Source: a virus. From it: 64,000 bases of DNA. Below the pieces are notes generated by a model. It had not been told where the DNA came from. It did not search any database and worked only from the letters and a program-made list of their open reading frames with translations. A program made the translations under genes and the position numbers. This document shows, in pieces, positions 69-63,872 of the stretch (positions within the stretch are counted from its first letter, which is position 1; every line of letters starts with the position of its first letter). The stretch covers positions 1 through 64,000 of IMG/VR virus record IMGVR_UViG_3300047160_007578. One strand, written 5' to 3'.

Positions 69-140
69 CGGACACGCTCTCCTGATTAATAATCATTCTG
101 GTAATCATTTTGATTCAATTATTGCTTCAGTCCGAATTGG

Positions 141-1745
141 TTATCTAATTTTGGTTATTACAAACGTTGCTTGTGATGTTGCACCAATCGTACTACCAGA
201 AGTTTGGGTCGCCATAACTTCAATGTAATCACCAGCATTTAATTGCAGCAATGCACTAACAGCATGTCGAGTATCATTCAATGAATTAGCAGACGGCCAA
301 CCGCTACCATTCATAAGCGTTGTACCATTCTTTCGGAATTCAATGAGACGATTACCGGTGGCGTTCGATACCCAATGAAGATAAAAATCTAGATGGTACA
401 GACCTGTTAACGGAACTGTAAATTTAGTTGAGCTAAGAAAGCCAGCATCATCATACTGTGCAATCCATGTTATAGCCGTCGCGACACCAGTAGGTATACT
501 AAAACCAGAACTAAGGGCATAGCAAGCAAGATTACGTTTGGAATTAATAGTCAATGCGAGAGCATTTCGCATTGTCATTATATCTTGAATACGAATGACA
601 CTACCAGACCGTTTAATAAATGGATCAGCACACAGGACTGGTGCGGCATAATTGGCGCCTGTGAGGAAACCTGATCCAGGTGTTCCATTGAAAACTGAGT
701 AATACATACCAAGACCGTTATTACTACCATCAAAAATTTCAACGTACATATAATATACTGTAGAACTGACTTGGACAAAACAGGGAGCACTGTATTGGTT
801 GGTTGATAATGCTGCAGGCCAATTGGACATCCAATGCGACACACCCGACATAACATAGCCGGATGTGAGCGAAGTAGAAGTCATAAGTTCAATATAAAAA
901 TTGGTATTAGTTTTGACAAATATATAGTAAGTACCACTAACTTTAACCACATACGGTGACTCTATACCAACGTGAAGACTTGTGCCAGTAATTGCAACCG
1001 GAGAACTCCAAGCCGTCATATCAGAACTGGTTGGATGACGCTCAAAAAGTGAACAGTTCGTATTGGCTACGCCAACACAAACAAAAATATGAACAGAACC
1101 ATCAGTATCAACAAACCATTCCGGACCCTGAACATACGCAGCACTGGCAACTGTAGCTGCCTCTGATATATCTGTGACGTGTGTCCAATTAATCAAATCT
1201 GGTGATGATGCGATACCCCACGATGTTGACGTTGTCGAACCCGTAGTATTTGTCGCCATCGTATAAACCATCCAGTATATTGTCCCGTCATAGTAAATCG
1301 ACGGGTCTTTAAGATAACCACTTGGTGGTTTATAGGCAGGCAACGGTCGTAATACGTCCCAATTGATGCCATCACCGCTACCCATAATAAATGCATTACT
1401 ATTGTTCTGCTCGGTATTGATGGAAAGGAACATTCCTTGTCCTTGATTATTCAAATTGCCTATCGGATTCGTGGCGAGATTTTGTAATGAAGCAGCGGTT
1501 AATATATTGATTACTTGAGCACCGCTAGCGTGAGCAGCCGCAGTCGTTCCTTCTTGACCGCGTGTGACTGTGAACGTAGTGCCTGAAACGACAGTCACAA
1601 CCATTATCTCACTGTCTATTAAGATATGGAAATTGCCAGCCGTTGGAAAATTGGTTGCTGATGCAACTGTTAGAGTTGTAGCGACATTGGTAATTGCTCC
1701 AGTAAGAGAACTAATCGCATTGTTGACATATTGTTCTGCGATCAT
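141..1745 (-). CDS. Putative tail fibre/receptor-binding protein: N-terminal anchor, GH43/GH32-like beta-propeller, C-terminal C1q-like domain
   Basis: KDPSIYYDG, GPEWFVDTDG and ESPYVVKV propeller-type motifs; FTVPLTGLYH...LQLNAGDYIEV C1q-like end; Ser/Thr-rich; in virion module. Confidence 0.65.
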   Translation of the reverse strand: MIAEQYVNNAISSLTGAITNVATTLTVASATNFPTAGNFHILIDSEIMVVTVVSGTTFTVTRGQEGTTAAAHASGAQVINILTAASLQNLATNPIGNLNNQGQGMFLSINTEQNNSNAFIMGSGDGINWDVLRPLPAYKPPSGYLKDPSIYYDGTIYWMVYTMATNTTGSTTSTSWGIASSPDLINWTHVTDISEAATVASAAYVQGPEWFVDTDGSVHIFVCVGVANTNCSLFERHPTSSDMTAWSSPVAITGTSLHVGIESPYVVKVSGTYYIFVKTNTNFYIELMTSTSLTSGYVMSGVSHWMSNWPAALSTNQYSAPCFVQVSSTVYYMYVEIFDGSNNGLGMYYSVFNGTPGSGFLTGANYAAPVLCADPFIKRSGSVIRIQDIMTMRNALALTINSKRNLACYALSSGFSIPTGVATAITWIAQYDDAGFLSSTKFTVPLTGLYHLDFYLHWVSNATGNRLIEFRKNGTTLMNGSGWPSANSLNDTRHAVSALLQLNAGDYIEVMATQTSGSTIGATSQATFVITKIR

Positions 1746-1751
1746 TAATCA

Positions 1752-3374
1752 TTACCTCACTTTCATTATCTTGAACAACTGATTGCCCGACATGGCTAAC
1801 GTGATCGTGCTACTTTGATAGACTGCAACTTCGATATAATCGCCGGCATTCAAATAAATCAACATCTGTAAGGAATGCATTACATCATCGAATGTGGAGG
1901 ATTGAATATAGAATCCATTTCCATTCAAGTACAATGTACCATTTTTGCGGAGTTCCGCTTTGCGAATTCCCACGTTATTTGCAGCCCAATGCGAGTATGA
2001 ATCTATCCAGTACCAGCCTGTTACTGGAGCGTAGAATTTAGTTGATCCTGCTCCACCTTGGAGGAAATTACCTTCGTCAGATATTGCTGTATAAGTAAGA
2101 GCAGTGGTTGTAGTATTAGCCACGCTGGTACCAGAAACATTTGAAGCATTACAGGCAAGAAATCTTTGACTATTAATCATTGCAGCGAAAGCGTTCCGCA
2201 TTGTTTTCATATCTTGGATGCGAGCAACAGTTCCAGATCGTTTGAGAAATGGGTCGGTGCACAAAACCGGTGCGGCATAATTGCCGCCAGTGGTAAAACC
2301 TGAACCCGGTGTGCCGCCAAAAATTGAATAATACATACCAAGGCCATTATAACTGGCATCGATCTTTTCGACGTACATGTAAAAGACTGTGGAACTAATT
2401 TGAACGAAACAAGGAGCACCGTAGCTATTTGAAGACGAAGCTGCTGGCCAATTACTCATCCAATGTGATGAACCTGCAACCGTATAACCGGATGTGAGCG
2501 AAGAAGAAGTCCAAAGTTCGATATAATAATTGCTATTGTTCCGAATAAACAGATAATAAGTCGTTCCGACTTTGATCACAAATGGTGACTCGACACCCGT
2601 TGCGAGACCGGTGCCTGTGATTGCGACTGCCGAACCCCACGTTGTCATACCGATATTTGTGGGAGAACGCTTATAAATCGCAGCAGTTGTATTACTTGTT
2701 CCAATTGTGAGAAAAACGTGAACAGAACCGTCAGTATCGATGAACCATTCTGGACCTTGAACGTATGTAGCACCGCTAACTGTTCCTGACTCCGATACGG
2801 TTGTTACGAGCGTCCAATTGATCAGATCAGGCGAGGATGCAACACCCCAAGATGTAGACGTCGTTGAACCTGTCGTATTTGTTGCTATTGTGTAAACCAT
2901 CCAATACGTTGTGCCATCATAATAGATCGATGGGTCTTTAAGAGAATTGCTTGCCGGCTTATAAACCGGGGTTGGGCGTAACAAATCCCAATTGACACCA
3001 TCACTACTACCCATAAGAAGTGCGTTACTATTGTACTGTTCCGTATTGAGGGAAACAAACATCCCTTGTCCCTGACTATTTAAGCTACCTATCGGATTCG
3101 TAGCAAGGTTTTGTAATGCCTCCGCAGAGACAATACAAATCACATTAACGCCACCGGTGTGAGAAGCAGCTGTTGTACCTTCTACACCACGAGTGATCGT
3201 GAATGTTGTACCAGAAACGGAAGTCACACGCATTATTTCATTGTCTACTAAAATATGAAAATTGCCAACAGTCGGAAATGCGGTTGCAGCTGCAACTGTT
3301 AAGGTCGTATCGGTACTGATGATAGAGCTACTAAGTGTACTGATCGCGTTGTTAACGTATTGTTCTGCGATCAT
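1752..3374 (-). CDS. Tandem paralog of 141-1745, putative tail fibre/receptor-binding protein
   Basis: Collinear high similarity with 141-1745 (MIAEQYVNNAIS, LKDPSIYYDGT, YVQGPEWF, LNAGDYIEV). Confidence 0.65.
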   Translation of the reverse strand: MIAEQYVNNAISTLSSSIISTDTTLTVAAATAFPTVGNFHILVDNEIMRVTSVSGTTFTITRGVEGTTAASHTGGVNVICIVSAEALQNLATNPIGSLNSQGQGMFVSLNTEQYNSNALLMGSSDGVNWDLLRPTPVYKPASNSLKDPSIYYDGTTYWMVYTIATNTTGSTTSTSWGVASSPDLINWTLVTTVSESGTVSGATYVQGPEWFIDTDGSVHVFLTIGTSNTTAAIYKRSPTNIGMTTWGSAVAITGTGLATGVESPFVIKVGTTYYLFIRNNSNYYIELWTSSSLTSGYTVAGSSHWMSNWPAASSSNSYGAPCFVQISSTVFYMYVEKIDASYNGLGMYYSIFGGTPGSGFTTGGNYAAPVLCTDPFLKRSGTVARIQDMKTMRNAFAAMINSQRFLACNASNVSGTSVANTTTTALTYTAISDEGNFLQGGAGSTKFYAPVTGWYWIDSYSHWAANNVGIRKAELRKNGTLYLNGNGFYIQSSTFDDVMHSLQMLIYLNAGDYIEVAVYQSSTITLAMSGNQLFKIMKVR

Positions 3375-3417
3375 TAATCATTTCCTCCTGTTAGTATTGA
3401 TTGATACCCATGAGTAC

Positions 3418-3876
3418 CTATGGATGCGTGAGCGTAAAGGAAGAAATGCTAACCGTATCGCCGCTATTGATTGTCGTTGTCGGAAAAACGATATCGAAAC
3501 TAGAAGAGGTTCCGACTGTACAATCCATAACCGCTGTACCACCGCCAGAAGCCATCCGAGCCCAGGTAGCTGTACCAGTGTTGCCAGCGGTGCCAGAAGT
3601 GATCGTGTTGGCAGTTGCGACACCATTGACGGATGCGCCGAAGGAAGTTGACGAGAACGTGAGTGTAGCCAAAAGAGTTTGGCCGGAAAGAGCGGTGTCC
3701 GGTCCAGCTGGTTGTGTGCCGGTGTAGATTTTGATCGTACCAGCGCCACCAGCGTTGAGTAATGCAGTGACCGCATCCATCGCGGCACTCTTTCCGGCAT
3801 TGCTGAGTGTCAAGTTGTTCGCGAAGGCTCGCTGGAACCACTTGAGGAATGACGCTTTGTCTGAGAACTTGATCAT
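3418..3876 (-). CDS. Virion structural protein (Gly/Thr-rich)
   Basis: IKIYTGTQP...LLATLTF...GTATWARM...TVSISSFTLT pattern typical of small phage structural proteins; RBS present. Confidence 0.6.
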   Translation of the reverse strand: MIKFSDKASFLKWFQRAFANNLTLSNAGKSAAMDAVTALLNAGGAGTIKIYTGTQPAGPDTALSGQTLLATLTFSSTSFGASVNGVATANTITSGTAGNTGTATWARMASGGGTAVMDCTVGTSSSFDIVFPTTTINSGDTVSISSFTLTHP

Positions 3877-3900
3877 TGTTGTCTCCCTTTTGATTATTGA

Positions 3901-5826
3901 TCAGGTCGAACCAACATGCCCGTGTTGCCCCGGTTTGGGTCCAGGCCGTTCTTTAACTACTGTTCCGGAATGAGTTTCACCTGATGGACTACCGCCCTTA
4001 CCGCGAACCGGGAAACCGGCTTTGGCTTTCTCGGCTTGGACTTCGCCGTCCGGATCAGCGGATTCGTCCCGATTACCTCGAGCGCCGGGATTTTGTTGAC
4101 CATTCCCATCACCGTTGGGCGCCGCTGCTCCCATTCCCTGCTCGGGCTGCTGAGCTTTCTTGATCATTTCCAGACGCTTGACTTGAGCTTCCTGAGCCTT
4201 CTTCGCCGTGCCCTCTGGATAGCCACGAAGCTTACCGGCGTAGTCAGGATCAAGGATTCCAGTTTGAACGTCCTTGGTGATCTGGTCAATGGCGATATCA
4301 ACGGTTTCAGATTCGTCGATTTCATCGTATATTTTTTGCATCATTTCCGGTGGATAGCGATGTAATAAGAGCAAGTCTGCGATTCGTTTTGCCACGCATC
4401 GCTGGAATGTAATAGAGCAGTGACCAGCTATTTGTTTCTTGTATTCTTCGACTTCGGCCCAAATGTCCTTTTGGTTCTGGACGTTGAACTTGTCAGGGTA
4501 TCGAATCGTGGCGATATCATGTTCCTTCTCGTTTTCGTACATGTGCCACAAGTAGGCGATTTGCCGCTCGGCATCTTCGCACATCGATCCGATATAACAA
4601 AGGCCAGCCTCAAGCGACCGTTCATCGAATCCGCGGGACTCAGCAGATGTGGCTCTTACGTTTAGGTTGGTAATAGACAAATTGATTAATAATCGAATAT
4701 CCATCTTCAACTGCTCTTCCAAGTCCATTCCAGACTTGAGAGACTCTGCCGATGGATTTACAAATTGCGGCCGCTCCAGTCCCTTTGCGTACATTCGGCC
4801 GTAGCCGACACCGACCTTGATATTGTGCGATGGCATCGAGCCATTACCAACAACGCCGCCATCGTCAGGCGCACTGGCAGAACCGTTTCCATTGGCAGTT
4901 TGCGGTATCGCGGCATCGCTGCCGTCTTGCAAGTGACCGGAGTACGCTCTTGGATCGAATTGCTCGGTATAGAAGGGGAAATTGGAATCAATGCCAAAGG
5001 AAAGAGTAGAAGAAGCAAGGTTCAATAGAGCTATCTGATAGTCCGCGATATCGGACATAAGAGAGTTGGATAGCTCCGCGGTGACAAAGGGAATACGTGG
5101 GATATTCAATTGGATTGGCCCGGTATTACCCTGACCAGTCGGATCAATGGGTTGACTATTTTCGTTATAGAACTGGACCCAAATCGTTCCGTCGTCTTCG
5201 TCTCGGTAATAGTACCGGTACTGGTGTGTTGTCCCGGTGGGCAGCTTGGTTATTGCGTCACGAATGAAAACCGTATCTCTAAGTAATAGTGCTTTGTAAA
5301 TATTGGGTGTAGGCGAATCGTCGTATTCCCAGGAGCGAATATCTTCGGCCTTGTACACGTACAAATAGGGGCGAATGTCCTTGTTGGCTAATACCGTCGT
5401 TCCGCGTTTAATAGGCATGTCCACGTAGATGCCGACCTTACCCATGATACACAATTCTGGAAGCACCATTGCTCCCATGAATGTGTTCATAGATGTGCCA
5501 GACAAATCCACGCCAGCTTCGCGACCCATGATCGCGGCTTGATAAGAGCGTGAGCCATCGATTCGGGTGATATCCCGGAATCGTCCGTAAATCGAACTGA
5601 TGGTATCCCGTACTGCTGCTTTGGCGAAGGCGGGGCAGTAGGCTATTTTCTTCCTTCGGCTAAAATCGTCATTAGACTCTGCCTTACGCTGTTGCAGATA
5701 TTCGTTGATGAAAATCCAGCCACCCTCATAAGTGAGTCGCCACTTATACCATTCCAGCATGCGCAAGGAATAGTGAGGGTGCGTTATTGATTCTATCGGG
5801 ATTTGTGTGACAATTTCTAGTGCCAT
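3901..5826 (-). CDS. Portal protein
   Basis: HPHY..W..WR..YEGG N-terminus, GKVGIYVDMP, RPYLYVY.AEDI..W, IPFV motifs; near terminase; start placed at the RBS-preceded ATG 5826. Confidence 0.8.
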   Translation of the reverse strand: MALEIVTQIPIESITHPHYSLRMLEWYKWRLTYEGGWIFINEYLQQRKAESNDDFSRRKKIAYCPAFAKAAVRDTISSIYGRFRDITRIDGSRSYQAAIMGREAGVDLSGTSMNTFMGAMVLPELCIMGKVGIYVDMPIKRGTTVLANKDIRPYLYVYKAEDIRSWEYDDSPTPNIYKALLLRDTVFIRDAITKLPTGTTHQYRYYYRDEDDGTIWVQFYNENSQPIDPTGQGNTGPIQLNIPRIPFVTAELSNSLMSDIADYQIALLNLASSTLSFGIDSNFPFYTEQFDPRAYSGHLQDGSDAAIPQTANGNGSASAPDDGGVVGNGSMPSHNIKVGVGYGRMYAKGLERPQFVNPSAESLKSGMDLEEQLKMDIRLLINLSITNLNVRATSAESRGFDERSLEAGLCYIGSMCEDAERQIAYLWHMYENEKEHDIATIRYPDKFNVQNQKDIWAEVEEYKKQIAGHCSITFQRCVAKRIADLLLLHRYPPEMMQKIYDEIDESETVDIAIDQITKDVQTGILDPDYAGKLRGYPEGTAKKAQEAQVKRLEMIKKAQQPEQGMGAAAPNGDGNGQQNPGARGNRDESADPDGEVQAEKAKAGFPVRGKGGSPSGETHSGTVVKERPGPKPGQHGHVGST

Positions 5827-5840
5827 AAATGATTCCTTTC

Positions 5841-6815: not shown

Positions 6816-6840
6816 ATCATTCTCCCGTTCTGATTAATAA

Positions 6841-8514
6841 TCATGCAGTCTGGATGGTTTTGTTTTGTCCCATAGTCACCGCGAAATTCAGAGCGATTTC
6901 GGCATAATTGCGAGCGTGAGCAAAGTGATCTGCTACACGATCGCCGGTAACATAGGATGCGATTGTGTTCCCGTCTTTGTCCTTCCTAGGGACTCTGACA
7001 GGAGCCTTGATGTGGTTCTTGTAATCTGCGGGCAAATCGGCTGGGAGAGCAATGTGTTGGGCCTTGAATCGGCCGAGACTCAGGTCTAGCCAAGCAGTAC
7101 GATCAGCAGTAAAGGTCGGTTCACCGGACCAGACCGTGATATTTTTGGACCTAGTATTATCGCCGTAGATGCAAAGCATAACGAATCCGTCGAATCGACT
7201 AGCAAACTCCAGAGCCTTTCGTTTCTCTGGATGGGCGTCGATCACGCAGGCTCGGACTTGCCACTTTCGCATCAGCCTATCGAGTTCCTCGAATTCTTCC
7301 AGAACGATTACTTCCAATACCTTTGGCTTATGGGAAATATTGATATCTGGCGAATGTCCCATATAATGCCACGCGTCTATTTCAACGTGCAATTGTGCTC
7401 CCTGATCCACTCCCATTGTAATAAGTGTGCCGGCGTTGACTTTGGGATTCAAGAAGTAGTTCTTCTGGCATTCCCGGATATGTTGATCATTAATCCGAGC
7501 GCCTTTTACTTCGTGAACCTGGCCAAGAACCGAATTGAAAAGCTCTTGCTCTTCGTCGGGATCGATTTTGGCTTTGAATACTTTGGCGGCGATATTTTTC
7601 GGATGCCTGGCGGTAGCGGAAGAATATAGGCCGTTTATATGATAACCGTGCCACAATCCACGCTCGTTGTGCGGTAGCCATTGGCCGTCTTTCAACCATT
7701 CGTGTTTGGTTTCGTGCTCCAGTTTGGTTTTGCATTCCTTGCATTGTAGGTAAGAATTAACGAGACCTGGATCAAACAGATCGTCTCCGGTTATTACAAG
7801 GCAATCAGGAAAAGTCAATTCAGTGAAACGGTTACAATGAGGACAACGGAAATGGAAATGATCTTGTTTTGACTCCTCGTACTCGATGTTGATTCCAGTA
7901 CCAGCGACAGTAGGAGTAGAAATCTTGATTTGTTGGAATTGGACTTGACCAGACTGACGTTCCTCAGCGAGTGCGAGGTTCTTTTGCGTCATTTCGTCAA
8001 GTTCGTCGAAGATTATTAATCCGGCTGGAATAGACTTTAATTGAGATCGGGAGCGTGTGCCGCGGATGTACAGGTTGGTTGTACCGGCTCGCTTATGGCC
8101 GACGTTCTGCACATCCGAGAACAAATCTGTTAGATAGGTGGAACCTTCAAGTGCTGGGTCAAACCGGCCCGCGGAGAAATTGGAGGCGTCAGGTGTTTGT
8201 GATGGTAACAGATAAAGACAATCAACGCGTTTAATGTCAATGGAATAAAAGACACGATTCAAACATATCTCTGTATAGCCCATTTGGGCAGACTTTTGGC
8301 CGATCCACTTCTCGTCCTCGTTATCATGCATCGCTTTCGCCCAGGGGAAATATTTGAAGGAGTATGGCCCTGGGAAGGGTTGACCCATGATCCTGCACTT
8401 TTCCGCCCAGCTTGAGCAATTCACTATAGATTTTCGGCGTAGACCGTTAGCGATTATCTGGGAAAATGACGTAAGGAGTTCCGATGGCATTGGAATAACC
8501 CACCATTTGGTCAC
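6841..8514 (-). CDS. terL: Terminase large subunit (lambda GpA-like)
   Basis: QKSAQMGYTE Walker A variant, IIFDELDEM Walker B, ISTPT motif III, CPHC/CKEC zinc motif, MGVDQG nuclease motif, C-terminal DHFAHA. Confidence 0.92.
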   Translation of the reverse strand: MTKWWVIPMPSELLTSFSQIIANGLRRKSIVNCSSWAEKCRIMGQPFPGPYSFKYFPWAKAMHDNEDEKWIGQKSAQMGYTEICLNRVFYSIDIKRVDCLYLLPSQTPDASNFSAGRFDPALEGSTYLTDLFSDVQNVGHKRAGTTNLYIRGTRSRSQLKSIPAGLIIFDELDEMTQKNLALAEERQSGQVQFQQIKISTPTVAGTGINIEYEESKQDHFHFRCPHCNRFTELTFPDCLVITGDDLFDPGLVNSYLQCKECKTKLEHETKHEWLKDGQWLPHNERGLWHGYHINGLYSSATARHPKNIAAKVFKAKIDPDEEQELFNSVLGQVHEVKGARINDQHIRECQKNYFLNPKVNAGTLITMGVDQGAQLHVEIDAWHYMGHSPDINISHKPKVLEVIVLEEFEELDRLMRKWQVRACVIDAHPEKRKALEFASRFDGFVMLCIYGDNTRSKNITVWSGEPTFTADRTAWLDLSLGRFKAQHIALPADLPADYKNHIKAPVRVPRKDKDGNTIASYVTGDRVADHFAHARNYAEIALNFAVTMGQNKTIQTA

Positions 8515-22030: not shown

Positions 22031-22170
22031 TGTTTTCCCTCTCGTTGTCTCGTTGACTCTGCACAATCATAGCATCGAAAAACCATTTGTCAAATTATTT
22101 TTTCCACTTGACAGATTAATAATCGTAAGCTAGGATTGTGCAGAGTTAACAACACCACCTGAGGACAATC

Positions 22171-27812: not shown

Positions 27813-29201
27813 ATGTCCAGAGTGCTCGCAATCGTCCTCAACTTCGCTCAAATCGCTTGGGTTTCGGCGGTCAACTACCGTCGGGACTACGGCGACACTG
27901 ACCGACTGCGGGCCAGTTTGACCGATCGTGATTGGGTTCAGGACAACGTGGTTCAGGCGTTTCCGCTCGACAACGCGGCGGCGCTCGGCTACGACGTTCC
28001 GACCATGATCGCGGCCGAACTGGACCTGCGGCAGAAGTTGTGGGACACGCTGAAAGCCGATCAGTCCAAGGAAGGACTCGTGAAGCTGAAGGTGTTCGAG
28101 AAGCTCTATACCGTCAACGGTGACGGCAAGCGGCTGATCGAACCAAACCACTTCGGCAACAGCGGCTTCCGGCGCCACTCGGTCTACTTCGCCGCAATGG
28201 TTGACCGCTGGAACCTCCGCGAGAAGCCCGAATACGCGGGCTACGAAATCTCGGGTCACGTTCCAGTCCGGGTCATGACCTACGCGACGAAGGCCGATCA
28301 AATCTTCGAGCAACAGCTTGAGAACGCCATGCAGAACGTCGGCACGAAGCAGATGGAGGACTTGGAAAAGCTCCGAGTCACTCACGATCTGTTCCAGGCC
28401 GGCGCGAAGCAGGTCAAGATTCGGCATCTGTACCCCGGTTCGACCGGCCAGAAGCTGTTCTCGATCTGTCTGGCCGATCTCAACTGGCCTGCGTTGAAGA
28501 TTTATGATCGTTTCCACTTGCCCGAATCGCATCCCGATCGGATCAAGTGGGGTCCGGTGCGTCAACAGGACGTGACGAAGTTCAACAACAGGTTCGATGC
28601 CGTCCGCAAGGAGAAGGACGGCCTGCCGCTCACTCCCGCGGAGCAGAAGGAATTGCTGCCACCGATCACCCTGGATGACCTCCAGATCGCGGTGGACAAC
28701 TACTTCCGCGACGCTTCCCGCGGCAAAGAGGACGATTCCGCCAAGATGATGAAGAAGGGCGACATTGCATCGCTCGCTCGCGTCCACCGCTGCTCTATCG
28801 TCCGTCGGGCGATGGACTCGGTACTCGGCGACGTGCAGACGAACTTGCAGAAGTTCGTCAGCAACCCCGACTGCATCAACTTGGCCACGGAACTGTATGA
28901 TCTTGGCGGTCAGGACGCCGGCAAGACCATCCTCACTCCGCTGATCAATGATCAGACCGAAACCACCCCGGAGGGCAAACAGGTCGCCAAGCGCGTTTTC
29001 AACGACAAGGCGGCTCTCGCGCTCGTCGGTGCGGCTACCCTGCTGATCAAGGGTCAGGGCGACGCCTTGCTCAAGGCGATCGACCTCATCAACAACCCGC
29101 CGCCCCCGCCCGCTCCGGTGGAGGAAAAGCCCGCTGCCACTCCCCCGACCGCTCCGGCCAACGGCGGCAAGAAGCAGCAGACCGGCGGCAAGCGCAGCTG
29201 A
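27813..29201 (+). CDS. ParB/Srx-like N-terminal domain protein with Pro/Lys-rich tail
   Basis: NYRRDYGD..L.ASL, SGFRR (GxRR), VPVRV and EN...MEDLEK follow ParB box I/II order; strong C/G third-position codon bias. Confidence 0.6.
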   Translation: MSRVLAIVLNFAQIAWVSAVNYRRDYGDTDRLRASLTDRDWVQDNVVQAFPLDNAAALGYDVPTMIAAELDLRQKLWDTLKADQSKEGLVKLKVFEKLYTVNGDGKRLIEPNHFGNSGFRRHSVYFAAMVDRWNLREKPEYAGYEISGHVPVRVMTYATKADQIFEQQLENAMQNVGTKQMEDLEKLRVTHDLFQAGAKQVKIRHLYPGSTGQKLFSICLADLNWPALKIYDRFHLPESHPDRIKWGPVRQQDVTKFNNRFDAVRKEKDGLPLTPAEQKELLPPITLDDLQIAVDNYFRDASRGKEDDSAKMMKKGDIASLARVHRCSIVRRAMDSVLGDVQTNLQKFVSNPDCINLATELYDLGGQDAGKTILTPLINDQTETTPEGKQVAKRVFNDKAALALVGAATLLIKGQGDALLKAIDLINNPPPPPAPVEEKPAATPPTAPANGGKKQQTGGKRS

Positions 29202-36151: not shown

Positions 36152-36152
36152 A

Positions 36153-38090: not shown

Positions 38091-38981
38091 CTATAGCCAA
38101 CCCCACTCATCCCCTCTAAGTCTGCTCCAATCAAAGTCGCCAACTTCAATCACTTCCCCTAATTGTTTCTCTACCATCAGAGCACAATATTGTTTGCTTA
38201 TCTCCACTCCAAAAACGTATCTCTGTTCACCACCAGGACCGAGCCCCAGCTTATTAGCCCGTAAAGAACTCCCTGATCCCGCAAAAAGATCAACGAAACA
38301 TTCCCCAGGAAACGTAGAAAACAGAATGATCCTTTCCATCAACTTGATCGGATGCTGCGTAGGAATCTCCGGAACTCTTTCCCAGGAATTACCCACAATC
38401 CGCGGAAACGCCCAAACATTGGCTGGAACCCTTGGACCAGCGGCTCTACCGTCCCCTAAAAGCATCCGCCCTGATACCTCTCTTATAGAATCAACATTCA
38501 ATCTACCCAATCTATTATCCGAGTATGTTCCCGGCCGCTTCCCACCGTCTCGGGGCTTATTCCCGGTCCACCGAAACCGCAAAATTGGCCGATACCCGCT
38601 GGTGCAATCGCTGTCGTTGTACTGACCGAAAGTATAATTCCAAATGAACTTATCAACTTCAACCGTCGGAAAGATTGCACCGTATTTCTTTCCTTCGTAC
38701 CCCTCCACTTTCCGACCTTTAATCAATTCCAGAACAAGACTGCAAATCTCTAGGTCATGTATCTGATTGTAAGACAACCAAAAGATTTCACATCGACTGA
38801 CAGCTTCGATTATCAACAGTTTCAACCAGAGATAGTATGTCTCAGGGTCCAATCTATCTCGATAAATATTTTCTTCACCGTAATCAAAACCAATATTATC
38901 AGGCACGTCTGCAAACATAGCCTTGACTTTCCCTGGCGGAGTCTTCCGTAGGAATTCAAGGCAGTCTCCGTGAATGATCAA
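38091..38981 (-). CDS. DNA methyltransferase (N4-C/N6-A, beta class) with atypical catalytic motif
   Basis: IIHGDCLEFL, ADVPDN at the DPPY position, NVW, PTQHP..LMERII, VDLFAGSGS, GVEIS. Confidence 0.85.
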   Translation of the reverse strand: MIIHGDCLEFLRKTPPGKVKAMFADVPDNIGFDYGEENIYRDRLDPETYYLWLKLLIIEAVSRCEIFWLSYNQIHDLEICSLVLELIKGRKVEGYEGKKYGAIFPTVEVDKFIWNYTFGQYNDSDCTSGYRPILRFRWTGNKPRDGGKRPGTYSDNRLGRLNVDSIREVSGRMLLGDGRAAGPRVPANVWAFPRIVGNSWERVPEIPTQHPIKLMERIILFSTFPGECFVDLFAGSGSSLRANKLGLGPGGEQRYVFGVEISKQYCALMVEKQLGEVIEVGDFDWSRLRGDEWGWL

Positions 38982-55970: not shown

Positions 55971-56014
55971 GTGGATCGATCACACCCGGTATTGCTACCG
56001 GGTGTGATCATTAA

Positions 56015-57307: not shown

Positions 57308-57406
57308 ACGAGGCTCCTGAGGGTTAGGGCGAAAGGGATTTCGGACTACGCCAGGAACACCCCAGCGTTTATGGTCCAAACAATACTTTTCGATCATTAA
57401 TCTTTC

Positions 57407-57691: not shown

Positions 57692-57885
57692 CGGATTTGG
57701 TTACACGAGTACCTTGGTTCACGCGCACGAAATGGTTACGCGACGATTATGGTTCCCACTGTTTGTATGGTTACGCTTCTACGTTTGGTTCTCGTCCATC
57801 TGATGGTTCCATTCGCCGGGCTTGGTTCTCACATCGAGATTGATTAAAAATCACTGCTCCTATGGTTCTCACGTGGTGCGAGGAT
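57680..57885 (-). repeat. TIGR-like dual-repeat array 2 (~6 units, 35-nt period), immediately downstream of the Nop-domain gene
   Basis: TGGTTCCCGC-n8-TGGTTACAC-n8-TGGTTCACGC-n8-TGGTTACGC-n8-TGGTTCCCAC-n8-TGGTTACGC. Confidence 0.9.
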
Positions 57886-57887
57886 AA

Positions 57888-58958: not shown

Positions 58959-59018
58959 GGTTCACATCCTTTCTCCGGTCGTTGACCGGAATGCGATTAT
59001 TAATCAACGTCTCTTTTT

Positions 59019-59371
59019 TGGTTCACGCGAGCTTCACGGTTACACTCCTTCTTGGGTTCTCGCGAAGTCAGTGGTTACGCGCCTTGTATGGTTCTCACGG
59101 TATCAATGGTTTGTCCGCTCCTCCTTTCTCGGAGCCAACGGAACAGGCTCCTGTTTGCACATTCCCTCCGTGGTTCTCACAGTCGCGTTGGTTACGCTCC
59201 TTTCGTGGTTCTCTCGGGCAAATTGGTTACACCTGCATTCTGTTTCTAGCAAAGCGGGTGGTTTTACGCAAATCATCTGGTTCACGCGGGTGCGATGGTT
59301 GCACTCCCTGATCGTGGTTCTCGCATTTAGACTGGTTACTCTCAAGCACTGGTTCCCACCAAACTGATGGT
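59019..59371 (-). repeat. TIGR-like dual-repeat array 3 (~8-9 units), upstream of the Nop-domain gene
   Basis: Same alternating repeats; interrupted at ~59111-59170 by a hairpin-containing insert. Confidence 0.9.
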
Positions 59372-59739
59372 TAGCTGATTTCCTTAAAGCCGGGGAACTT
59401 CATCTGGTTCTCGATGACGGTTTTCCAGACGCCATCGATCTGGATGGACAGCAGCCGCTCCGGATCGAAACAGCGATACTGTTCTTGCGGGTATTCGTAG
59501 ACGCCGATGAGTCCCTTCTTCTTGAAATCGACGCCCTTGTTGTACGGATTCTTCGCCAACAGAATCTCGTCGGCGATCCCGGTGGCACACTCCATGCCGC
59601 GGATCGTGCCGTCAGCCTTGACGAAACGGATATGGAACCGAACACGGGGATGTTCTTCGATCCACTTCTTCGCGTCCGCGAGTGAAATGACCGTGGTATT
59701 GGCCGCTGGATCAGGAGTTACGATTTCAGGGGTATCCAT
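59371..59739 (-). CDS. Sm/SH3-like beta-barrel (WYL_2-like) protein
   Basis: FHIRFVKADGTIR.M..........YRCFDPERLLSI pattern. Confidence 0.65.
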   Translation of the reverse strand: MDTPEIVTPDPAANTTVISLADAKKWIEEHPRVRFHIRFVKADGTIRGMECATGIADEILLAKNPYNKGVDFKKKGLIGVYEYPQEQYRCFDPERLLSIQIDGVWKTVIENQMKFPGFKEIS

Positions 59740-59796
59740 TGTTGCACCTACTTTCTGCCCCATAGGGGCGTTGATTAAAAATCACAGACTGGTTGA

Positions 59797-60078
59797 TTAA
59801 CTGAACTTCTTACCGAAGACTCGTTGCGCTCGGTCCTTTGTCATGACTCCCGGCCCGCTGCGGACAGTCGCGAAGAGTTCTTCAAGCGGCTGGCCATAAT
59901 ATTGGTACGAGTCGAGCAACGCCTCAGCGCCGGCTCGGTTCTCGTCTTTGGGAAAGAAGCCGACTTCGCTCAGGTCGTACTTCTTCATGAACTCGACCAC
60001 TTGGTCCAAATCAGCATTACTTATCATATCACCTACTTTCTGCTCCATTGGAGCGTTTTGATTAAAGATCACCGACAA
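59797..60078 (-). CDS. Hypothetical protein
   Basis: ORF in operon; likely start at MISNAD. Confidence 0.55.
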   Translation of the reverse strand: MSVIFNQNAPMEQKVGDMISNADLDQVVEFMKKYDLSEVGFFPKDENRAGAEALLDSYQYYGQPLEELFATVRSGPGVMTKDRAQRVFGKKFS

Positions 60079-60093
60079 TGTGGTTCTCGTTTG

Positions 60094-60342
60094 TTACTTG
60101 GTTACGAATTCGATCTGCTCCATCGGAACGAATCCGCCGAACGGTCGCGTATGCACGGCAAAGCCACGCCCACCATAGGTGGTATCCTGGGCACTGCCGA
60201 TGATGTTGTCGTTGTCGTCCAGAACGAAACCATAGCGGCGTCCTGGTCCGTTGTCCTGAGTCAATCTGACCCGAAATTTCCCTCCCAAAATTGAGTGCCA
60301 GACAGCAGTGACGCTGTCAGTGTCAGCTTTAATCGTTGCCAT
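60094..60342 (-). CDS. Hypothetical protein
   Basis: GAGG RBS. Confidence 0.65.
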   Translation of the reverse strand: MATIKADTDSVTAVWHSILGGKFRVRLTQDNGPGRRYGFVLDDNDNIIGSAQDTTYGGRGFAVHTRPFGGFVPMEQIEFVTK

Positions 60343-60361
60343 TGTTACCTCACTCGGGTTT

Positions 60362-60421
60362 TGTTTCTCACCAAAATTCTGGATTCACCCGCTCGTCTGG
60401 TTCTCACCACTCTTTTGGATC
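60362..60421 (-). repeat. TIGR-like mini-array 4 (~2 units)
   Basis: TGTTTCTCAC-n8-TGGATTCAC-n9-TGGTTCTCAC-n8-TGGAT. Confidence 0.7.
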
Positions 60422-60430
60422 ATTGATCAA

Positions 60431-60736
60431 TCACTCCGGGCGTTCTTGGCGAGTCGGGATCGGCAGCTGCGCCGCCATGATCGTGAACTCGAACGGGCAG
60501 CCGAACATGTAAATCTTGAACCGCGTTTCCTCCGGCCAGCGATGACGCCACGGCAGGAAATCCTGAGCTTGCTGCGTGCCAGGCGGAGGAAATTCCACAT
60601 CCGGAACGATCAGAAGCGTATCGGTTGCAGTGAGATACACGCCAGGACCGTTGAACTTGAAATCGTTACCCAGGTAGGTTTCGATTTGTTTGCCGGTTCC
60701 TGAGTGTGTCCAGTCAGGCATTACTTGGTACGGCAT
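60431..60736 (-). CDS. Hypothetical protein
   Basis: Coupled ORF. Confidence 0.6.
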   Translation of the reverse strand: MPYQVMPDWTHSGTGKQIETYLGNDFKFNGPGVYLTATDTLLIVPDVEFPPPGTQQAQDFLPWRHRWPEETRFKIYMFGCPFEFTIMAAQLPIPTRQERPE

Positions 60737-61002
60737 TATCCACCTTTCGGATAAGAGGGGTGTTTCTCGCGTCCGCGAGTATATCCGTCGCAGAACGCCC
60801 GCAGACGGAGAACAGTGTTTTCGTCGAGTTGGCCCCGCTTTTCAAGATCGTAGTGAAAATCGAGAAAAATATGGCCAGCATCCTTGCGATTAATAGTCAC
60901 ATCCACATCATAGAGGTCAGCAAGTTCCTCTTGTAGCTCTTTTGCCAGCATGGGCAAATGAATGTGGACACTGTAGATTGTTTGCGACACTATCATGATC
61001 AC
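60736..61002 (-). CDS. Hypothetical protein
   Basis: Coupled ORF with RBS. Confidence 0.6.
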   Translation of the reverse strand: MIMIVSQTIYSVHIHLPMLAKELQEELADLYDVDVTINRKDAGHIFLDFHYDLEKRGQLDENTVLRLRAFCDGYTRGREKHPSYPKGG

Positions 61003-61060
61003 CTATCCTTTCCGGCCAATAACGGCCACTGCGATTAATAATCACCACTCGGGGTGGGAT

Positions 61061-61567
61061 TTACCACTCGGGGTGGAACTCATTCCAGTCGACGCTCTTG
61101 TTGACGGTCTGGCCGAGGTTGGCACAGAACACTTCAATCGGGTCTTCGGCATCGAGCACGACGACGAACTTCATGTCGCCGCCGATGATGACTTCGTAAT
61201 ATTTCGGATTTTCGATTTCCACGACGATTCCACCTTTCCTGTTTTCGTTGCTGGCGAAAGTCTGTTCTGCACAGTAGAACTCGATCAGCCGCTTCACGAA
61301 CGCGCAGTTGTCCGCTTTCGCTGCGGCGTTGATCGCGGTGCATCCTTGCAGGTACGACAGTGCTTCCCTCACGCCGTACAGGTTGACATCTTGCCAGAAC
61401 TGAATGGCATACGCCTGATCATCCAGACAGGCGTCAACAGCCATTTCCAGTCGGCGGACCCGGCAACCTTGATCGCCGCGGTCCATTTCCTCCAGAATCC
61501 GCTGAGTCAATCGTTGCTTTGCCATGATTTCTCTCTTCTGTATTACATGTCCAAATGTGAAGATCAT
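61061..61567 (-). CDS. Hypothetical protein
   Basis: Likely start at MAKQRL. Confidence 0.6.
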   Translation of the reverse strand: MIFTFGHVIQKREIMAKQRLTQRILEEMDRGDQGCRVRRLEMAVDACLDDQAYAIQFWQDVNLYGVREALSYLQGCTAINAAAKADNCAFVKRLIEFYCAEQTFASNENRKGGIVVEIENPKYYEVIIGGDMKFVVVLDAEDPIEVFCANLGQTVNKSVDWNEFHPEW

Positions 61568-61570
61568 TAA

Positions 61571-61780
61571 TCATTCCTTGAGTTGAATCGTTTCGTCCAG
61601 GTCCAATGCAGGTTGCACCACGCGAACCTGAAAGCACAGACCAGGATATTCTTTCCGGAACAGTTCGATAGCCCGCTCTTTGGTGGCACAAACGTATCGT
61701 CCCCATTTCGAGCCGCCGCAACCACTTGTTGTGCCCACGTCGTAGACCCAATTCGCGGATACTATGAACTCGTATTGCAT
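61571..61780 (-). CDS. Hypothetical protein
   Basis: AAGGA RBS. Confidence 0.6.
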   Translation of the reverse strand: MQYEFIVSANWVYDVGTTSGCGGSKWGRYVCATKERAIELFRKEYPGLCFQVRVVQPALDLDETIQLKE

Positions 61781-61804
61781 CGTATCATTCCTTTCGATTA
61801 AAAA

Positions 61805-62242
61805 TCAGTACGGGCGTTTCATCTTGATCCCGAGCTTTTCTCGTATCGCTACGATACTCAGTTCTTGTTTCTGTTCCTCAGTCAGCGTCAGGTACTTGGG
61901 CGCGCACTCGTCGCAGATCGCGTTGTTGAATCCTTTCGACTTCGGCTCCGTCAGGATCACACCCTTGCAGAGCACGCACTCTGTCCAGTGGATGTTCGCG
62001 ATGCCGGGTTCCTTTTCCCAGCCATCGGAAATACTGCCTGTCCGACGGAAGTGTTGTACTGCGAGACGCCGATAATGCTCCAGCAGCACCTTCCGCGACA
62101 TTCGCTTCGGCGACACTGGAAAACGATACACTGTAGAGCGGTGATCCTTTTCCACGCCGAAAGCGAGTTTCACGGCCGCATGTTCGGTCGGTGCTTGCTC
62201 GCATCGTATCGCGTTGCCATAAGCTACTGCGAAGTAGGCCAT
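61805..62242 (-). CDS. Zinc-finger-containing hypothetical protein
   Basis: CVLC...CDEC. Confidence 0.65.
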   Translation of the reverse strand: MAYFAVAYGNAIRCEQAPTEHAAVKLAFGVEKDHRSTVYRFPVSPKRMSRKVLLEHYRRLAVQHFRRTGSISDGWEKEPGIANIHWTECVLCKGVILTEPKSKGFNNAICDECAPKYLTLTEEQKQELSIVAIREKLGIKMKRPY

Positions 62243-62243
62243 T

Positions 62244-62441
62244 TTAACCCTCGATTGAGAATTTTCCGCTCAGAGCCTTGTTCAGACCCTCTTGCGGAGT
62301 AAGGATACCGTGGACGACTTGCTTGTAAAGCTTTTCGTCCCCGAACTTCTTCACCCACTTGATCGTTGTGCGGCACGTCTCGCAGCAGTGAGCACCAGGC
62401 TCTTCGCAAACCGCACGATTGCAACCGTAGCACAGTTCCAT
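62244..62441 (-). CDS. Small Cys-rich protein
   Basis: CYGC...CCETC. Confidence 0.6.
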   Translation of the reverse strand: MELCYGCNRAVCEEPGAHCCETCRTTIKWVKKFGDEKLYKQVVHGILTPQEGLNKALSGKFSIEG

Positions 62442-62463
62442 GAATCGTCCTTTCGATTAAAAA

Positions 62464-62667
62464 TCAGTTTCCCAGGCACGCGAGAACCAGGTCCATCGGA
62501 CTGCCAGCCGGCCAGATGATCCGGTTATTAGCCGGAATCCTGACGGCGGGGTAGCTCTTGCCTTCGTAGCAGTAGCTAACCGACTTGTTACCGTTGGCGT
62601 CCTCACAGGGCACCACGGTCGTGCAGCCGCGATTTTCCAACCACAGCTTCATCGTAATGTAGTCCAC
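62464..62667 (-). CDS. Hypothetical protein
   Basis: First gene after the 62794-62822 promoter. Confidence 0.55.
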   Translation of the reverse strand: MDYITMKLWLENRGCTTVVPCEDANGNKSVSYCYEGKSYPAVRIPANNRIIWPAGSPMDLVLACLGN

Positions 62668-62793
62668 GAATCACCACCTTTCATTGTTTGATCATTAATC
62701 ATTTCCGAGTCACGATACTCAAATCTGATCAATAATCGCAGGCCAAATTAATCAAATCTTTCCGGCGGACCGCGCGCAGCGCTCCGCTATTAA

Positions 62794-62822
62794 AGTATAC
62801 CATATTATTTTGCCTATGTCAA
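62794..62822 (-). promoter_or_regulatory. Near-consensus sigma70 promoter
   Basis: TTGACA-17-TATACT. Confidence 0.88.
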
Positions 62823-62874
62823 GAGGAATTTTTTGACCTATCGAAAAGATTTGATTAATCTCGCTCTCTCCTTA

Positions 62875-63084
62875 TGGTTCTCACAAAACCATTGGCTGAT
62901 TAATAATCGCGAGTCGCTTGGTTCACACTCGTATAATGGATACGCTACGAGTTTGGTTCTCACGCTGTCCAAGGATACACCTTCGGTCTGGTTCTCACCG
63001 ATCAGATGGTTGCACCGCCCAATGGTTCTCACCATCTTTTTGGCTACACCTTCCAGTTGGTTCTCACAGCCACGACGGTTAAGC
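62875..63084 (-). repeat. TIGR-like dual-repeat array 5 (~6 units)
   Basis: TGGTTCACAC-n8-TGGATACGC-n8-TGGTTCTCAC-n8-AGGATACAC-n8-TGGTTCTCAC-n8-TGGTTGCAC. Confidence 0.9.
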
Positions 63085-63329
63085 CAAGTCACTGCAATGT
63101 GGACAAAGTGATCGCGGAGTCGCGTTGTCCGGATTAGAGCAGTTCGGGTGATGAAAAGAAGTCCAGTATTTGACCGTGTGATCTTCACCTTTCTGCCGAA
63201 TCAATTCTTGCGCGTAGTGATTGGCACCGGCCGCACTTTTCATCTGAGCGACGATTCGGCCGTTTTTATGCAGTACCTTCCACGGACGAGCGGGATCAAT
63301 CAGCATTATTGGTCCTTTCACGTACTCAT

Positions 63330-63380
63330 TGGTTCGCACCAGGACATTGGATACAAGAGCTATGGTTCTCACCATCCACC
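63330..63380 (-). repeat. TIGR-like mini-array 6 (~1.5-2 units)
   Basis: TGGTTCGCAC-n8-TGGATACAA-n6-TGGTTCTCAC. Confidence 0.65.
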
Positions 63381-63404
63381 TGATTAATAATCACACTCGT
63401 TGGA

Positions 63405-63872
63405 CTAAGCATGTGGTTTGATGGGCGAAGCCATCTTTTCGTAGACCTTCGGCATTCCGAGGTTGGCGTGTTCGTCCTTGTGAACGAGACTGACCACCTT
63501 GAAGTGCGCCAGCTTGTTGAGTTCGTGGTTGTCGAACATGTGGTCGTAGGTCGGGTTCATGATCGTGGCCATCATCCGCTTGCATTTTTGGCCGGGCTTG
63601 GCCGGATGCGGACCACCACTATCGCGAAAGGCGCTCGCGATACAGTGATGGATCGGATTGGTTGTGCAAAATGCGATTTCGCACAACAACCAATCGTGCC
63701 ATTGGAATTCGATTCCTTCCGACACATACATATGCGGCAGGCCAGATTCCTTGTAGACTTTGATGACCTCGAAAACTGAGATACTCACCAGACCCTCCTT
63801 TCGATTAAAGATCACACGACCTTTTTTGGTTCCCGCTGGATCAATGGTTACACCGTGGACCTTGGTTCTCAC
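63405..63872 (-). CDS. Hypothetical protein (true start probably near 63790)
   Basis: AAGGAGG RBS at ~63795; the upstream extension overlaps mini-array 7. Confidence 0.55.
   Translation of the reverse strand: MRTKVHGVTIDPAGTKKGRVIFNRKEGLVSISVFEVIKVYKESGLPHMYVSEGIEFQWHDWLLCEIAFCTTNPIHHCIASAFRDSGGPHPAKPGQKCKRMMATIMNPTYDHMFDNHELNKLAHFKVVSLVHKDEHANLGMPKVYEKMASPIKPHA

Follow-up and report, generated by a model that had tools for sequence, protein, structure and literature searches.

Which molecule reads a 13-bp palindrome that recurs throughout a viral genome, and to what end? The first-pass annotation of this 64,000-nucleotide stretch of DNA (the window) had counted about 100 copies by eye at intervals of about 600 bp. 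An exact search for GATYWWWRATC finds more, with 115 matches (first at 84, last at 63803), whereas 100 dinucleotide-preserving shuffles averaged 0.87 and never exceeded 3.

84..63813, no strand: the 115 GATYWWWRATC copies of the window, many reading TGATYWWWRATCA, at intervals averaging ~560 bp

Copies in the window lie 559 bp apart on average (median, 450 bp). The spacing is slightly more regular than chance placement would give (CV 0.75; 0 of 2000 uniform placements were that low), and the widest motif-free gap, 3460 bp, is of ordinary size for random placement. All of the positions given earlier as examples are recovered, offset by 1 for the 13-mer (4684, 28943, 54594, 21182, 22114, 27426, 27747, 55700, 57842, and 62898). 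The whole phage record (G000; 130,262 bp) contains 216 evenly dispersed exact copies, compared with a third-order Markov expectation of 3.1, and variants with one mismatch are near background (80 vs. about 52 expected), which limits the excess to exact copies.

The consensus, tGATYWWWRATCa, is a 13-bp dyad with symmetric T/A flanks (T before the motif in 69 and A after it in 70 of the 115 window copies), a form that agrees with the 13–16-bp dyads of ParB-type sites. The full 13-mer TGAT..ATCA is present at 41 of these copies, and 59 contain at least one GATC, the feature behind the earlier suggestion that methylation could modulate binding. The spacer is specific: GAT-N5-ATC is found at 265 places in the whole record, compared with 15–90 for the other spacers between N0 and N11, and N5 alone is enriched. 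Orientation is absent, in that AAA and TTT centres are both present in a minus-strand gene block.

Copies had been described as lying both at gene junctions and inside genes, and both descriptions hold: by the gene calls made in this analysis, 29 of the 115 window copies are more than 15 nt inside genes and the remainder are intergenic or sit at the edges of genes. Of the 216 copies in the whole record, 74 fall clearly within genes, at a density far above chance, and 143 (66%) are intergenic or at gene ends. The following copies illustrate these placements.

1740..1750, no strand: junction copy between the ribosome-binding site and gene 141-1745, with the ATG start within the motif
3369-3379: copy arranged in the same way as that at 1740..1750
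4684..4694, no strand: intragenic copy in the 641–652-aa gene adjoining the large terminase (probable portal), identical in the relative L005
6832..6842, no strand: junction copy after the terminase gene, the TGA stop forming the first three letters of the 13-mer, followed by a ribosome-binding site and the start of the next gene
7485..7495, no strand: copy within the large terminase gene, unchanged in L005
8011-8021: second intragenic terminase copy, lost in L005
21182..21192, plus strand: spacer copy directly after the TTGACA -35 box of TTGACA-17-TATGAT, an operator-like position
22114..22124, plus strand: spacer copy in a TTGACA-17-TAGGAT promoter-like site, positioned as at 21182

The enrichment had been expected to disappear if it merely reflected codon usage or overlapping stop-start signals. 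Codon controls were run on the whole record, with 200 synonymous-codon shuffles and 200 codon-order shuffles. Coding DNA holds 78 copies, compared with 6.4 ± 2.3 (maximum, 13) after synonymous-codon shuffling, a 12-fold excess, and with 1.0 (maximum, 4) after codon-order shuffling; non-coding DNA holds 138, compared with 0.17 expected. Called stop or start codons are touched by only 45 of the 216 copies (stop, 34; start, 13; both, 2), and the enrichment therefore does not disappear.

Comparison with relatives separates what is conserved from what is not. L005, with 85% overall DNA identity, keeps seven of eight sites, five of them letter for letter, and the copies are therefore under selection. 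In distant relatives, motif positions coincide at chance level only; the conserved property is motif density, not position. Relatives carry their own GAT...ATC palindromes with different spacers, mostly intragenic: tGATc-N4-gATCa in G007 (138 copies, 123 intragenic), GRTT-N5-AAYC in G008 (88 copies, 66 intragenic), and ttGATa-N4-tATCaa in G001 (102–158 copies; 53 of 102 intragenic), with 48 of 62 copies intragenic in G002. The remaining enriched relatives have N5, N6, or N7 spacers. Independence from gene context is thus evident in the relatives, and the pattern suggests a lineage-specific code built on a common GAT/ATC core. This is, in short, an interrupted palindrome of the "highly iterated" type, genome-wide and under selection. 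The relative G011 lacks the dispersed motif and has five perfect CATGATAAWWTTATCATG palindromes within one 220-bp non-coding cluster, which resembles a local operator of the classical kind, or a parS-like set, built on the same TGAT..ATCA type.

The earlier judgement that the site is too dense for a simple operator is upheld by 216 strand-symmetric copies kept by selection. Because the site is dense, genome-wide, strand-symmetric, and selected, the most suitable class of explanation is a phage protein marking or coating the genome, as had been proposed; the gene proposed to encode it is not supported.

27813..29201, plus strand: 462-aa ORF of no known family, with two motif copies inside (28499, 28943)

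Searches of Pfam, PHROGs, and PDB sequences (E ≤ 1) return no ParB match for this ORF, formerly called ParB-like; it is also absent from the ParB_N matches of a six-frame search of the whole record (E ≤ 1) and aligns with a true ParB alignment at a probability of 0.2 in an hhalign profile–profile comparison. It is not supported as a ParB protein, as neither a ParB N-terminal nor a ParB HTH domain is detectable by these searches. Its AlphaFold model is poor (pLDDT 57.6); Foldseek with this model gives Spo0J, KorB, and Noc rows that are non-significant (E ≥ 1), and residues ~181–239 give weak, generic rows that may resemble a helix-turn-helix (VIA Z 3.7–4.9). Co-occurrence with the palindromes in related phages had also been suggested as a check; no homologue of the ORF is present in G001, G002, or G003, which include relatives with palindromes of their own.

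A recognisable ParB lies outside the window, at G000 86073-86945, and contains ParB_N (E 4e-14) and HTH_ParB (E 2e-9) domains; among solved chains it matches Noc best (E 4e-22), along with Spo0J and ParB (range, 4e-22 to 1e-9). A second ParB_N protein is encoded at G000 94656-95777. The GxRR and ENxQRxxL boxes are the CTP-binding motifs of the ParB N-domain, and GHRRYAA and VENIQRQDLN of the phage protein align with GERRWRA and IENLQREELS of Noc; CTP binding by the phage protein is putative. Neither a ParA-type (AAA_31) match nor an integrase was found in the whole record. Because there is no such ParA match and the 216 sites are evenly dispersed, a classical parABS partition locus is rejected, and the arrangement resembles the orphan style of Noc and KorB.

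The reading placed first here, with somewhat less than even confidence, is that a symmetric, dimeric, sequence-specific phage protein recognises the palindrome as double-stranded DNA, and that this protein is likeliest the orphan ParB/Noc-type product of G000 86073-86945. ParB would load at every motif copy, with TGATTAATAATCA as the proposed target word, and would spread outward from each in the fashion of KorB and Noc; with a loading site each ~0.6 kb, the whole phage chromosome could be covered or marked. The purpose may be gene silencing or timing, protection, compaction, or discrimination between own and foreign DNA.

ParB is the sole recognisable sequence-specific DNA-binding family common to all 13 compared records. 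In the ParB tree, all nine of the strongly enriched loci fall outside a well-supported 14-row clade and none inside, and 11 of 15 enriched rows, compared with 2 of 16 non-enriched rows, carry a recognition helix of the form W-[VI]-Q-x-R. A second sample, drawn through the methyltransferase rather than ParB, comprised three motif-bearing and two motif-free records; ParB is present in two of the former (the third is a 39%-complete fragment) and in neither of the latter. ParB is the best candidate on these grounds, by a circumstantial link that is a correlation confounded by phylogeny: on the tree, the motif association amounts to about one gain and three losses. Further observations stand against ParB as the reader. 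It is also present in relatives without the dispersed motif (G003, G011, G012, and the whole 14-row clade); the helices of G007 and G008 are nearly alike (KSRGWVQIRGMLL and KSRGWVQVRGMLL), yet their spacers and inner bases differ; and the helix of G000, KKWVVIR, deviates from the common pattern. Several relatives are enriched at two adjacent spacers, which is not expected of a rigid dimer. Known ParB-family systems need few sites because their clamps spread, and 216 sites with all-or-none recognition would be just as compatible with an enzyme, for instance a methyltransferase.

38091..38981, minus strand: N6/N4 DNA methyltransferase, beta class (adenine), the rival candidate reader of the GAT half-sites

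An orphan methyltransferase reading of this kind would make the motif a phage counterpart of the highly iterated palindromes (HIP1 and alternate HIPs) of cyanobacteria, in which the enzyme methylates the adenines of both GAT half-sites and copies are kept since methylation is needed, or are made by a methylation-dependent repair bias. Such a reading is rather unlikely. An adenine methyltransferase is encoded in all seven motif-bearing records examined (PF01555 in G000 and G001; PF02086 in G002, in two copies, and in G006, G007, G008, and G009), the adenine sits in the invariant GAT core, G002 with its two Dam-like genes has two enriched spacers, and all-or-none recognition resembles enzyme behaviour. 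However, five of seven non-enriched relatives also encode a methyltransferase (G010, G012, G013, G014, and G015, but not G003 and G011), the same GAT core is accompanied by two unrelated enzyme families, and the commonest half-site is GATT rather than GATC. Small stand-alone methyltransferases of these classes are known to read contiguous words, unlike half-sites 5–7 bp apart. The cyanobacterial account ties HIPs to cognate methyltransferases (Elhai, 2015; PMC4390886). As described there, HIPs resemble the phage motif in running through coding and non-coding sequence alike, roughly once per kb (here, 216 copies of one palindrome across both), in being substituted by other palindromes in related lineages, and in the presence of orphan methyltransferases. 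They differ in being contiguous GC-rich 8-mers of cellular genomes, whereas the phage motif is an AT-rich interrupted dyad of a virus, and methyltransferases occur in all enriched but also in most non-enriched phage records examined.

The stoperators of Cluster A mycobacteriophages are dozens of 13-bp sites that a single phage protein recognises, most of them in the short gaps between genes; they are asymmetric, oriented with transcription, and bound by a monomeric repressor. Many 13-bp sites across a phage genome with a proposed single-protein reader recall this arrangement, and the palindromes might by analogy serve another fast-evolving DNA-binding protein (a repressor or the product of ORF 27813-29201), unrecognisable by sequence across relatives, that binds promoters and many sites along operons. 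The copies at 21182 and 22114, which occupy the spacers of strong TTGACA-17-TAnnAT promoter-like sites, seem placed as true operators would be, gene boundaries hold 66% of the G000 copies, and the weak helix-turn-helix-like rows (Z 3.7–4.9) of ORF 27813-29201 would suit such a protein. The reading is nevertheless improbable: no gene family follows the motif across the 13 records, that ORF lacks homologues in the three relatives named above, and copies in relatives are chiefly intragenic. The 123 promoter-like sites hold no more than 3 of the 216 copies in their spacers, and a sigma-70-type promoter operator is accordingly rejected. Membership of the stoperator class itself is rejected, as the phage motif is dyad-symmetric and unoriented, with AAA and TTT centres in one transcription block, and about ten times commoner. 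Another likeness is offered by Cluster O mycobacteriophages, for which the available text describes a 17-bp palindrome, TGTTCGGNNNCCGAACA, in 34 copies per ~70-kb genome, with invariant arms, a 3-bp A/T-rich centre (mostly AAA or TTT), no meaningful orientation, copies between and inside genes, and a suspected dimeric phage regulator (PMC4351075). Sequence, host, and density (34 per ~70 kb vs. 216 per 130 kb) differ, and spacer evolution among relatives is not described in that part of the source.

It is very unlikely that the copies are loading or priming sites, at about Okazaki-fragment spacing, for the phage primase-helicase (DUF5906 protein, G000 97039-99897). A spacing of 0.4–1 kb and occurrence on both strands suit lagging-strand priming, and a conserved replication module is common to the ParB gene and the motif-bearing clade; however, known primase sites are short one-sided words rather than 11–13-bp dyads, a dyad whose half-sites are 5–7 bp apart suggests that a dimer binds duplex DNA, and no evidence links the DUF5906 protein to the motif.

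A role in punctuating gene expression at junctions, be it as a terminator, a site of RNA processing, a promoter, or a signal for stop-start coupling, is scarcely credible and already largely refuted, as the predominance of intergenic and gene-end copies, and the stop codons that the motif provides in two of three frames on both strands (sometimes with ATG too), are set against a variable register relative to stop codon, ribosome-binding site, and start codon, the few called stops and starts overlapped, the 12-fold intragenic excess, the lack of orientation bias, and the largely intragenic copies of G007. An intrinsic terminator or RNA hairpin is rejected: the 13-mers yield hairpins worth 0 to -0.1 kcal/mol, a T-run is near only 32 of 216 copies, and motif-centred 33-mers fold more weakly than random 33-mers (-3.0 vs. 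-4.5 kcal/mol). Because the hairpin is unstable and promoter-like spacers hold so few copies, the palindrome is largely excluded as a gene-expression signal.

The ParB/Noc-type reading has two instructive precedents. Noc of Bacillus subtilis, an orphan ParB paralogue, nucleates on many dispersed chromosomal palindromes (NBS), roughly 70 in 4 Mb, and plasmid RK2 carries about a dozen OB sites. No solved protein is closer in sequence to the phage ParB than Noc, although the membrane-tethering function of Noc is without evident meaning for a phage. KorB of RK2 is a ParB-family CTP clamp without a classical centromere role, like the proposed phage reader, and reads a short palindromic operator dispersed on one replicon, from which it slides to act distantly (PMC11790492). 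The phage differs from the KorB system in having 216 sites, about one per 600 bp and a third of them intragenic, and no known KorA-like partner, and ParB binding in the phage is putative.

It is possible, if rather doubtful, that in this clade of soil phages an orphan ParB/Noc-type CTP clamp, with 100–200 dispersed lineage-specific loading palindromes, coats or labels the entire chromosome. If so, the palindromes would constitute a virus-wide identity mark, whose spacer length and inner bases diverge fast between related phages, as plasmid incompatibility determinants do, and which could silence, protect, or sort phage DNA with respect to the DNA of competitors and host.

The palindrome GATYWWWRATC occurs 115 times in the window, whereas dinucleotide-preserving shuffles of the 64 kb average 0.87 copies and never exceed 3. 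The whole 130,262-bp record (G000; completeness estimated at 88% in its IMG/VR entry), of which the window is the first half, contains 216 copies, with 11 to 26 in every 10 kb. The first-pass annotation had described a 13-bp palindrome repeated throughout the window; the array is real, extends genome-wide and is stronger than was claimed. GAT-N5-ATC is present 265 times in G000, and every other spacer from 0 to 11 only 15–90 times. Among the window copies, the three central letters are all A or T, position 4 is C in 45 and T in 70, and position 8 is A in 91 and G in 24. A preceding T (69 of 115) and a following A (70 of 115) give rise to the 13-mer originally noticed, as in palindromes of the TGATTAATAATCA type. 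Exact copies in G000 far exceed the 3.1 expected from a third-order Markov model, whereas one-mismatch variants number 80 against ~52 expected; recognition is therefore nearly all-or-none, and mirror positions 3 and 9 are the only somewhat tolerant positions. When window positions 1–20000 were compared by megablast with 50,697 phage records, no match was found, and a keyword literature search found neither a prior paper on the motif nor a phage this dense in one palindrome.

An in-house gene caller based on codon bias yielded 207 genes (84% coding); its starts are approximate, and 14.1–27.8 kb is poorly called. Of the copies in G000, 74 are located over 15 nt within genes, in many cases long and well-supported ones. 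Coding DNA holds 78 copies, compared with 6.4 ± 2.3 after gene-by-gene shuffling of synonymous codons and 1.0 after codon-order shuffling, and the 20.8 kb of non-coding DNA holds 138, where 0.17 are expected. A called stop codon is overlapped by 34 copies, a start codon by 13 and both by 2. Enrichment thus persists after control for stop–start junctions, and these shuffles, together with the few overlaps, rule out the motif as a by-product of such junctions. The register at junctions is variable: the TGA or TAA of the motif is sometimes the stop codon of the upstream gene, and other copies lie between the ribosome-binding site and the start or upstream of the ribosome-binding site. Gene boundaries are favoured in G000, as is to be expected of a word with stop codons in two of the three frames of each strand, for which intergenic DNA is the cheapest location. 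Two tandem paralogous genes (~535 aa, with the same N-terminus) each start within a copy:

141–1745, minus strand, probably a receptor-binding or tail-fibre protein; weak matches to glycosyl-hydrolase-43 and C1q-like domains
1752–3374, minus strand, its paralogue, probably of the same function

Selection on individual copies can be followed in L005, a relative whose terminase protein is 97% identical and whose DNA is 85% identical over 6.3 kb. A copy is retained at seven of the eight window sites compared; five sites, including three of the four intragenic ones, are identical, and the other three comprise one altered centre, one shift of 4 nt and one loss. The chance that an 11-mer stays unchanged at 85% identity is about one in six.

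Palindromes are usually purged by phages, which allows escape from restriction enzymes. In G000, avoided 6-bp palindromes (observed/expected) include GGATCC (0/18), TTCGAA (1/54), GACGTC (1/18), TTTAAA (1/17), AGATCT (1/14) and GAGCTC (1/12); its relative G001 avoids TGATCA (0/38), and G003 avoids GATC (45/245) and GATATC (1/22). GAT-N4-ATC, which matches the sites of BsaBI-like restriction enzymes, is strongly avoided, with 15 copies in G000 (66 expected) and 1 in G001 (44 expected), and is near zero in several relatives, including the motif-free G010. Despite this strong avoidance, G000 keeps the motif at over 70-fold its expected number, even at the price of changes to its proteins; a cost of this kind implies a function requiring sites at intervals of a few hundred bases.

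Phages that share the terminase (42–50% identity) or the ParB gene with G000 have dispersed dyads of their own, akin to that of G000 but not identical to it:

G001, 94 kb, ttGATa-N4-tATCaa; 102 TGAT-N6-ATCA against 5.2 expected, with 0 for the reversed-pattern control
G007, 55 kb, tGATc-N4-gATCa; 138 copies
G008, 68 kb, GRTT-N5-AAYC; 88 copies; has terminal repeats
G002, 33 kb, N5 and N6 spacers; 62 and 45 copies
G006 and G009, moderate enrichment
G003, G012, G013 and G015, no dispersed motif

Copies in these relatives are mostly intragenic (123/138 in G007, 66/88 in G008, 48/62 in G002 and 53/102 in G001), and no conserved intragenic positions beyond chance were found between orthologous genes of distant relatives (e.g., G000 and G001 coincide at 1 of 21 sites, with 0.6 expected). 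Site density is therefore conserved, rather than places or gene context; what is conserved is the density of sites on DNA with a shared GAT/ATC core, the inner letters and spacer being lineage-specific. No genes exclusive to motif-bearing records were found among 13 records, several of which are incomplete, so that this absence is weak evidence.

A local arrangement is found in G011, where a 220-bp non-coding stretch at 53229–53447 (L145:13229–13447) contains five perfect 18–20-bp palindromes (CATGATAAWWTTATCATG) and adjoins CTACATCG tandem repeats and a CTAG array of 8-bp period at 53996–54211. This region is probably an operator, origin or centromere-like element; the set resembles an ordinary operator or centromere-like cluster, local in extent and of the same palindrome type, and the dispersed state may have arisen from a cluster of this kind. 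Another type of iterated word is present in G011, which lacks the palindrome: the one-sided GGTCGCTGG (longer form AGGTCGCTGG) is dispersed 47 times over 69.5 kb, where its 8-mers would be expected ~4 times. CTAG-N4-CTAG in G011 and GGCC-N5-GGCC in G010 were dropped as alternative dispersed palindromes, being local tandem arrays of 8-bp and 9-bp period, respectively; the latter yields 19 matches in 320 bp (L139:4885–5200, part of G010).

The general proposal that a phage protein recognises the motif throughout the genome is supported, but the gene originally named for it, a supposed ParB-like ORF at 27813–29201, is not. This ORF has no Pfam, PHROGs or PDB-sequence match, aligns to a true ParB with an hhalign probability of 0.2, and gives no match at E ≤ 1 in a six-frame ParB_N search. 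None of its six homologues has a Pfam domain, and a homologue is absent from G001, G002 and G003. Its predicted model is poor (pLDDT 57.6), and two fold searches gave no significant match (Spo0J, KorB and Noc rows non-significant, generic helix-turn-helix rows weak). A genuine ParB/Noc-type protein is encoded in the replication and regulation module at 64–104 kb of G000 (L038/L039), which includes:

69865–70923, PD-(D/E)XK nuclease
73590–74366, sigma-70-like factor
79804–80418, NYN-domain RNase
86073–86945, ParB/Noc-type protein with ParB_N and HTH_ParB domains
88104–88592, HNH-AP2 endonuclease
88589–90652, SNF2 helicase beside ParB
94656–95777 (L039:10656–11777), minus strand, second ParB_N protein of 373 aa with a 230-aa uncharacterised C-terminal part
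97039–99897, DUF5906 primase-helicase

The closest solved relative of the 86073–86945 protein is Noc (E 4e-22), and it has both the GxRR and the ENxQRxxL box. Its gene adjoins the SNF2 helicase and DNA polymerase genes, and neither ParA nor an integrase was found in the record. ParB is the sole recognisable sequence-specific DNA-binding family common to all 13 compared records; the second ParB_N protein has conserved counterparts in G001, G002 and G003, and a second, weaker ParB match is present in each of G016 and G018. In a ParB tree of 31 rows, all nine strongly enriched loci fall outside a well-supported 14-row clade, which itself has none. The recognition-helix pattern W-[VI]-Q-x-R occurs in 11 of 15 enriched rows and 2 of 16 others, and in a sample drawn via the methyltransferase, ParB was present in two of three motif-bearing records and neither of two motif-free ones. 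The association, drawn from sequence comparison, is suggestive and is confounded by descent, because ParB also occurs in motif-free relatives, the helices of G007 and G008 are nearly the same while their spacers differ, and the helix of G000 is itself atypical. The orphan ParB/Noc-type protein would load at motif copies, and such loading could mark or coat the whole chromosome; this is our leading, tentative reading, which we rate at somewhat under an even chance.

The METHYLTRANSFERASE rival, a methyltransferase-linked palindrome, is less likely. G000 encodes a beta-class N6/N4 methyltransferase (38091–38981), all seven enriched records have an adenine methyltransferase, and the all-or-none pattern would suit an enzyme; however, the enzymes of enriched records come from two unrelated families, and five of seven non-enriched records also have a methyltransferase; the enzyme as an obligatory partner was rejected as a clean correlate. 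An unrecognised repressor-like protein reading the motif is doubtful to a similar degree; two copies (21182 and 22114) abut a perfect TTGACA in promoter-like spacers and may double as operators. That the copies are replication sites is improbable. Least probable of all is expression punctuation, since a role as an RNA or promoter element is largely ruled out by an unstable 13-mer hairpin (0 to −0.1 kcal/mol; 33-mers centred on the motif fold more poorly than random ones), the rarity of nearby T-runs (32/216 copies), the presence of only 3/216 copies in sigma-70-like promoter spacers (among 123 such promoter sites in G000) and the absence of orientation (AAA and TTT centres both occur within a long minus-strand gene block).

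The stretch is present in 24 soil-metagenome runs, among which no RNA runs are listed. A terminase scan of prokaryote genomes gave only three distant matches (27–33% identity), in actinobacterial and Chloroflexi-type MAGs, and no host is inferred. Contigs of four soil-metagenome runs were compared with the window. At 26000–34000, contigs from other samples have deletions or replacements of 90–370 bp. Of the 17 joint end-points, 6 have a motif copy no more than 15 bp away (e.g., 26210, 33285, 33597); copies are dense in this region, and contig joints at likeness under 95 are unreliable. The pattern may reflect recombination at copies or merely variable intergenic DNA. The 13.7 kb at 14100–27800 contain no ORFs other than short ones with weak scores, together with repeated ...GAGTCAA...GATTTTGATTAAAAATCCCAAAAAA-type elements, and include the longest motif-free gap of G000 (22114–25574). 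At 55680–63890, copies lie between units of TGGTTCTCAC-type repeat arrays (e.g., 55700, 57842, 60418, 62898, 63382), and an ORF between these arrays (57888–58958) has at most a faint IS110-type match.

The nearest described cases include the KorB/OB sites of RK2 (PMC11790492), Noc with its NBS sites, stoperators, the cyanobacterial highly iterated palindromes (HIP; PMC4390886) and, in Cluster O mycobacteriophages, a set of 34 invariant 17-bp palindromes of unknown function (PMC4351075). None has the density or the AT-rich interrupted form found in G000, and spacer-length drift among relatives is documented in none. The differing site versions of the relatives provide a natural series for finding the reader of the motif, and for following the simultaneous drift of a DNA-recognition code across hundreds of sites. 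If a ParB-type clamp reads the motif, viruses would be putting CTP-dependent DNA clamps to a new use, and a handle for tagging or silencing entire replicons would be gained; if a methyltransferase does, the array would be the counterpart in a virus of the HIP sequences, which are themselves unexplained.
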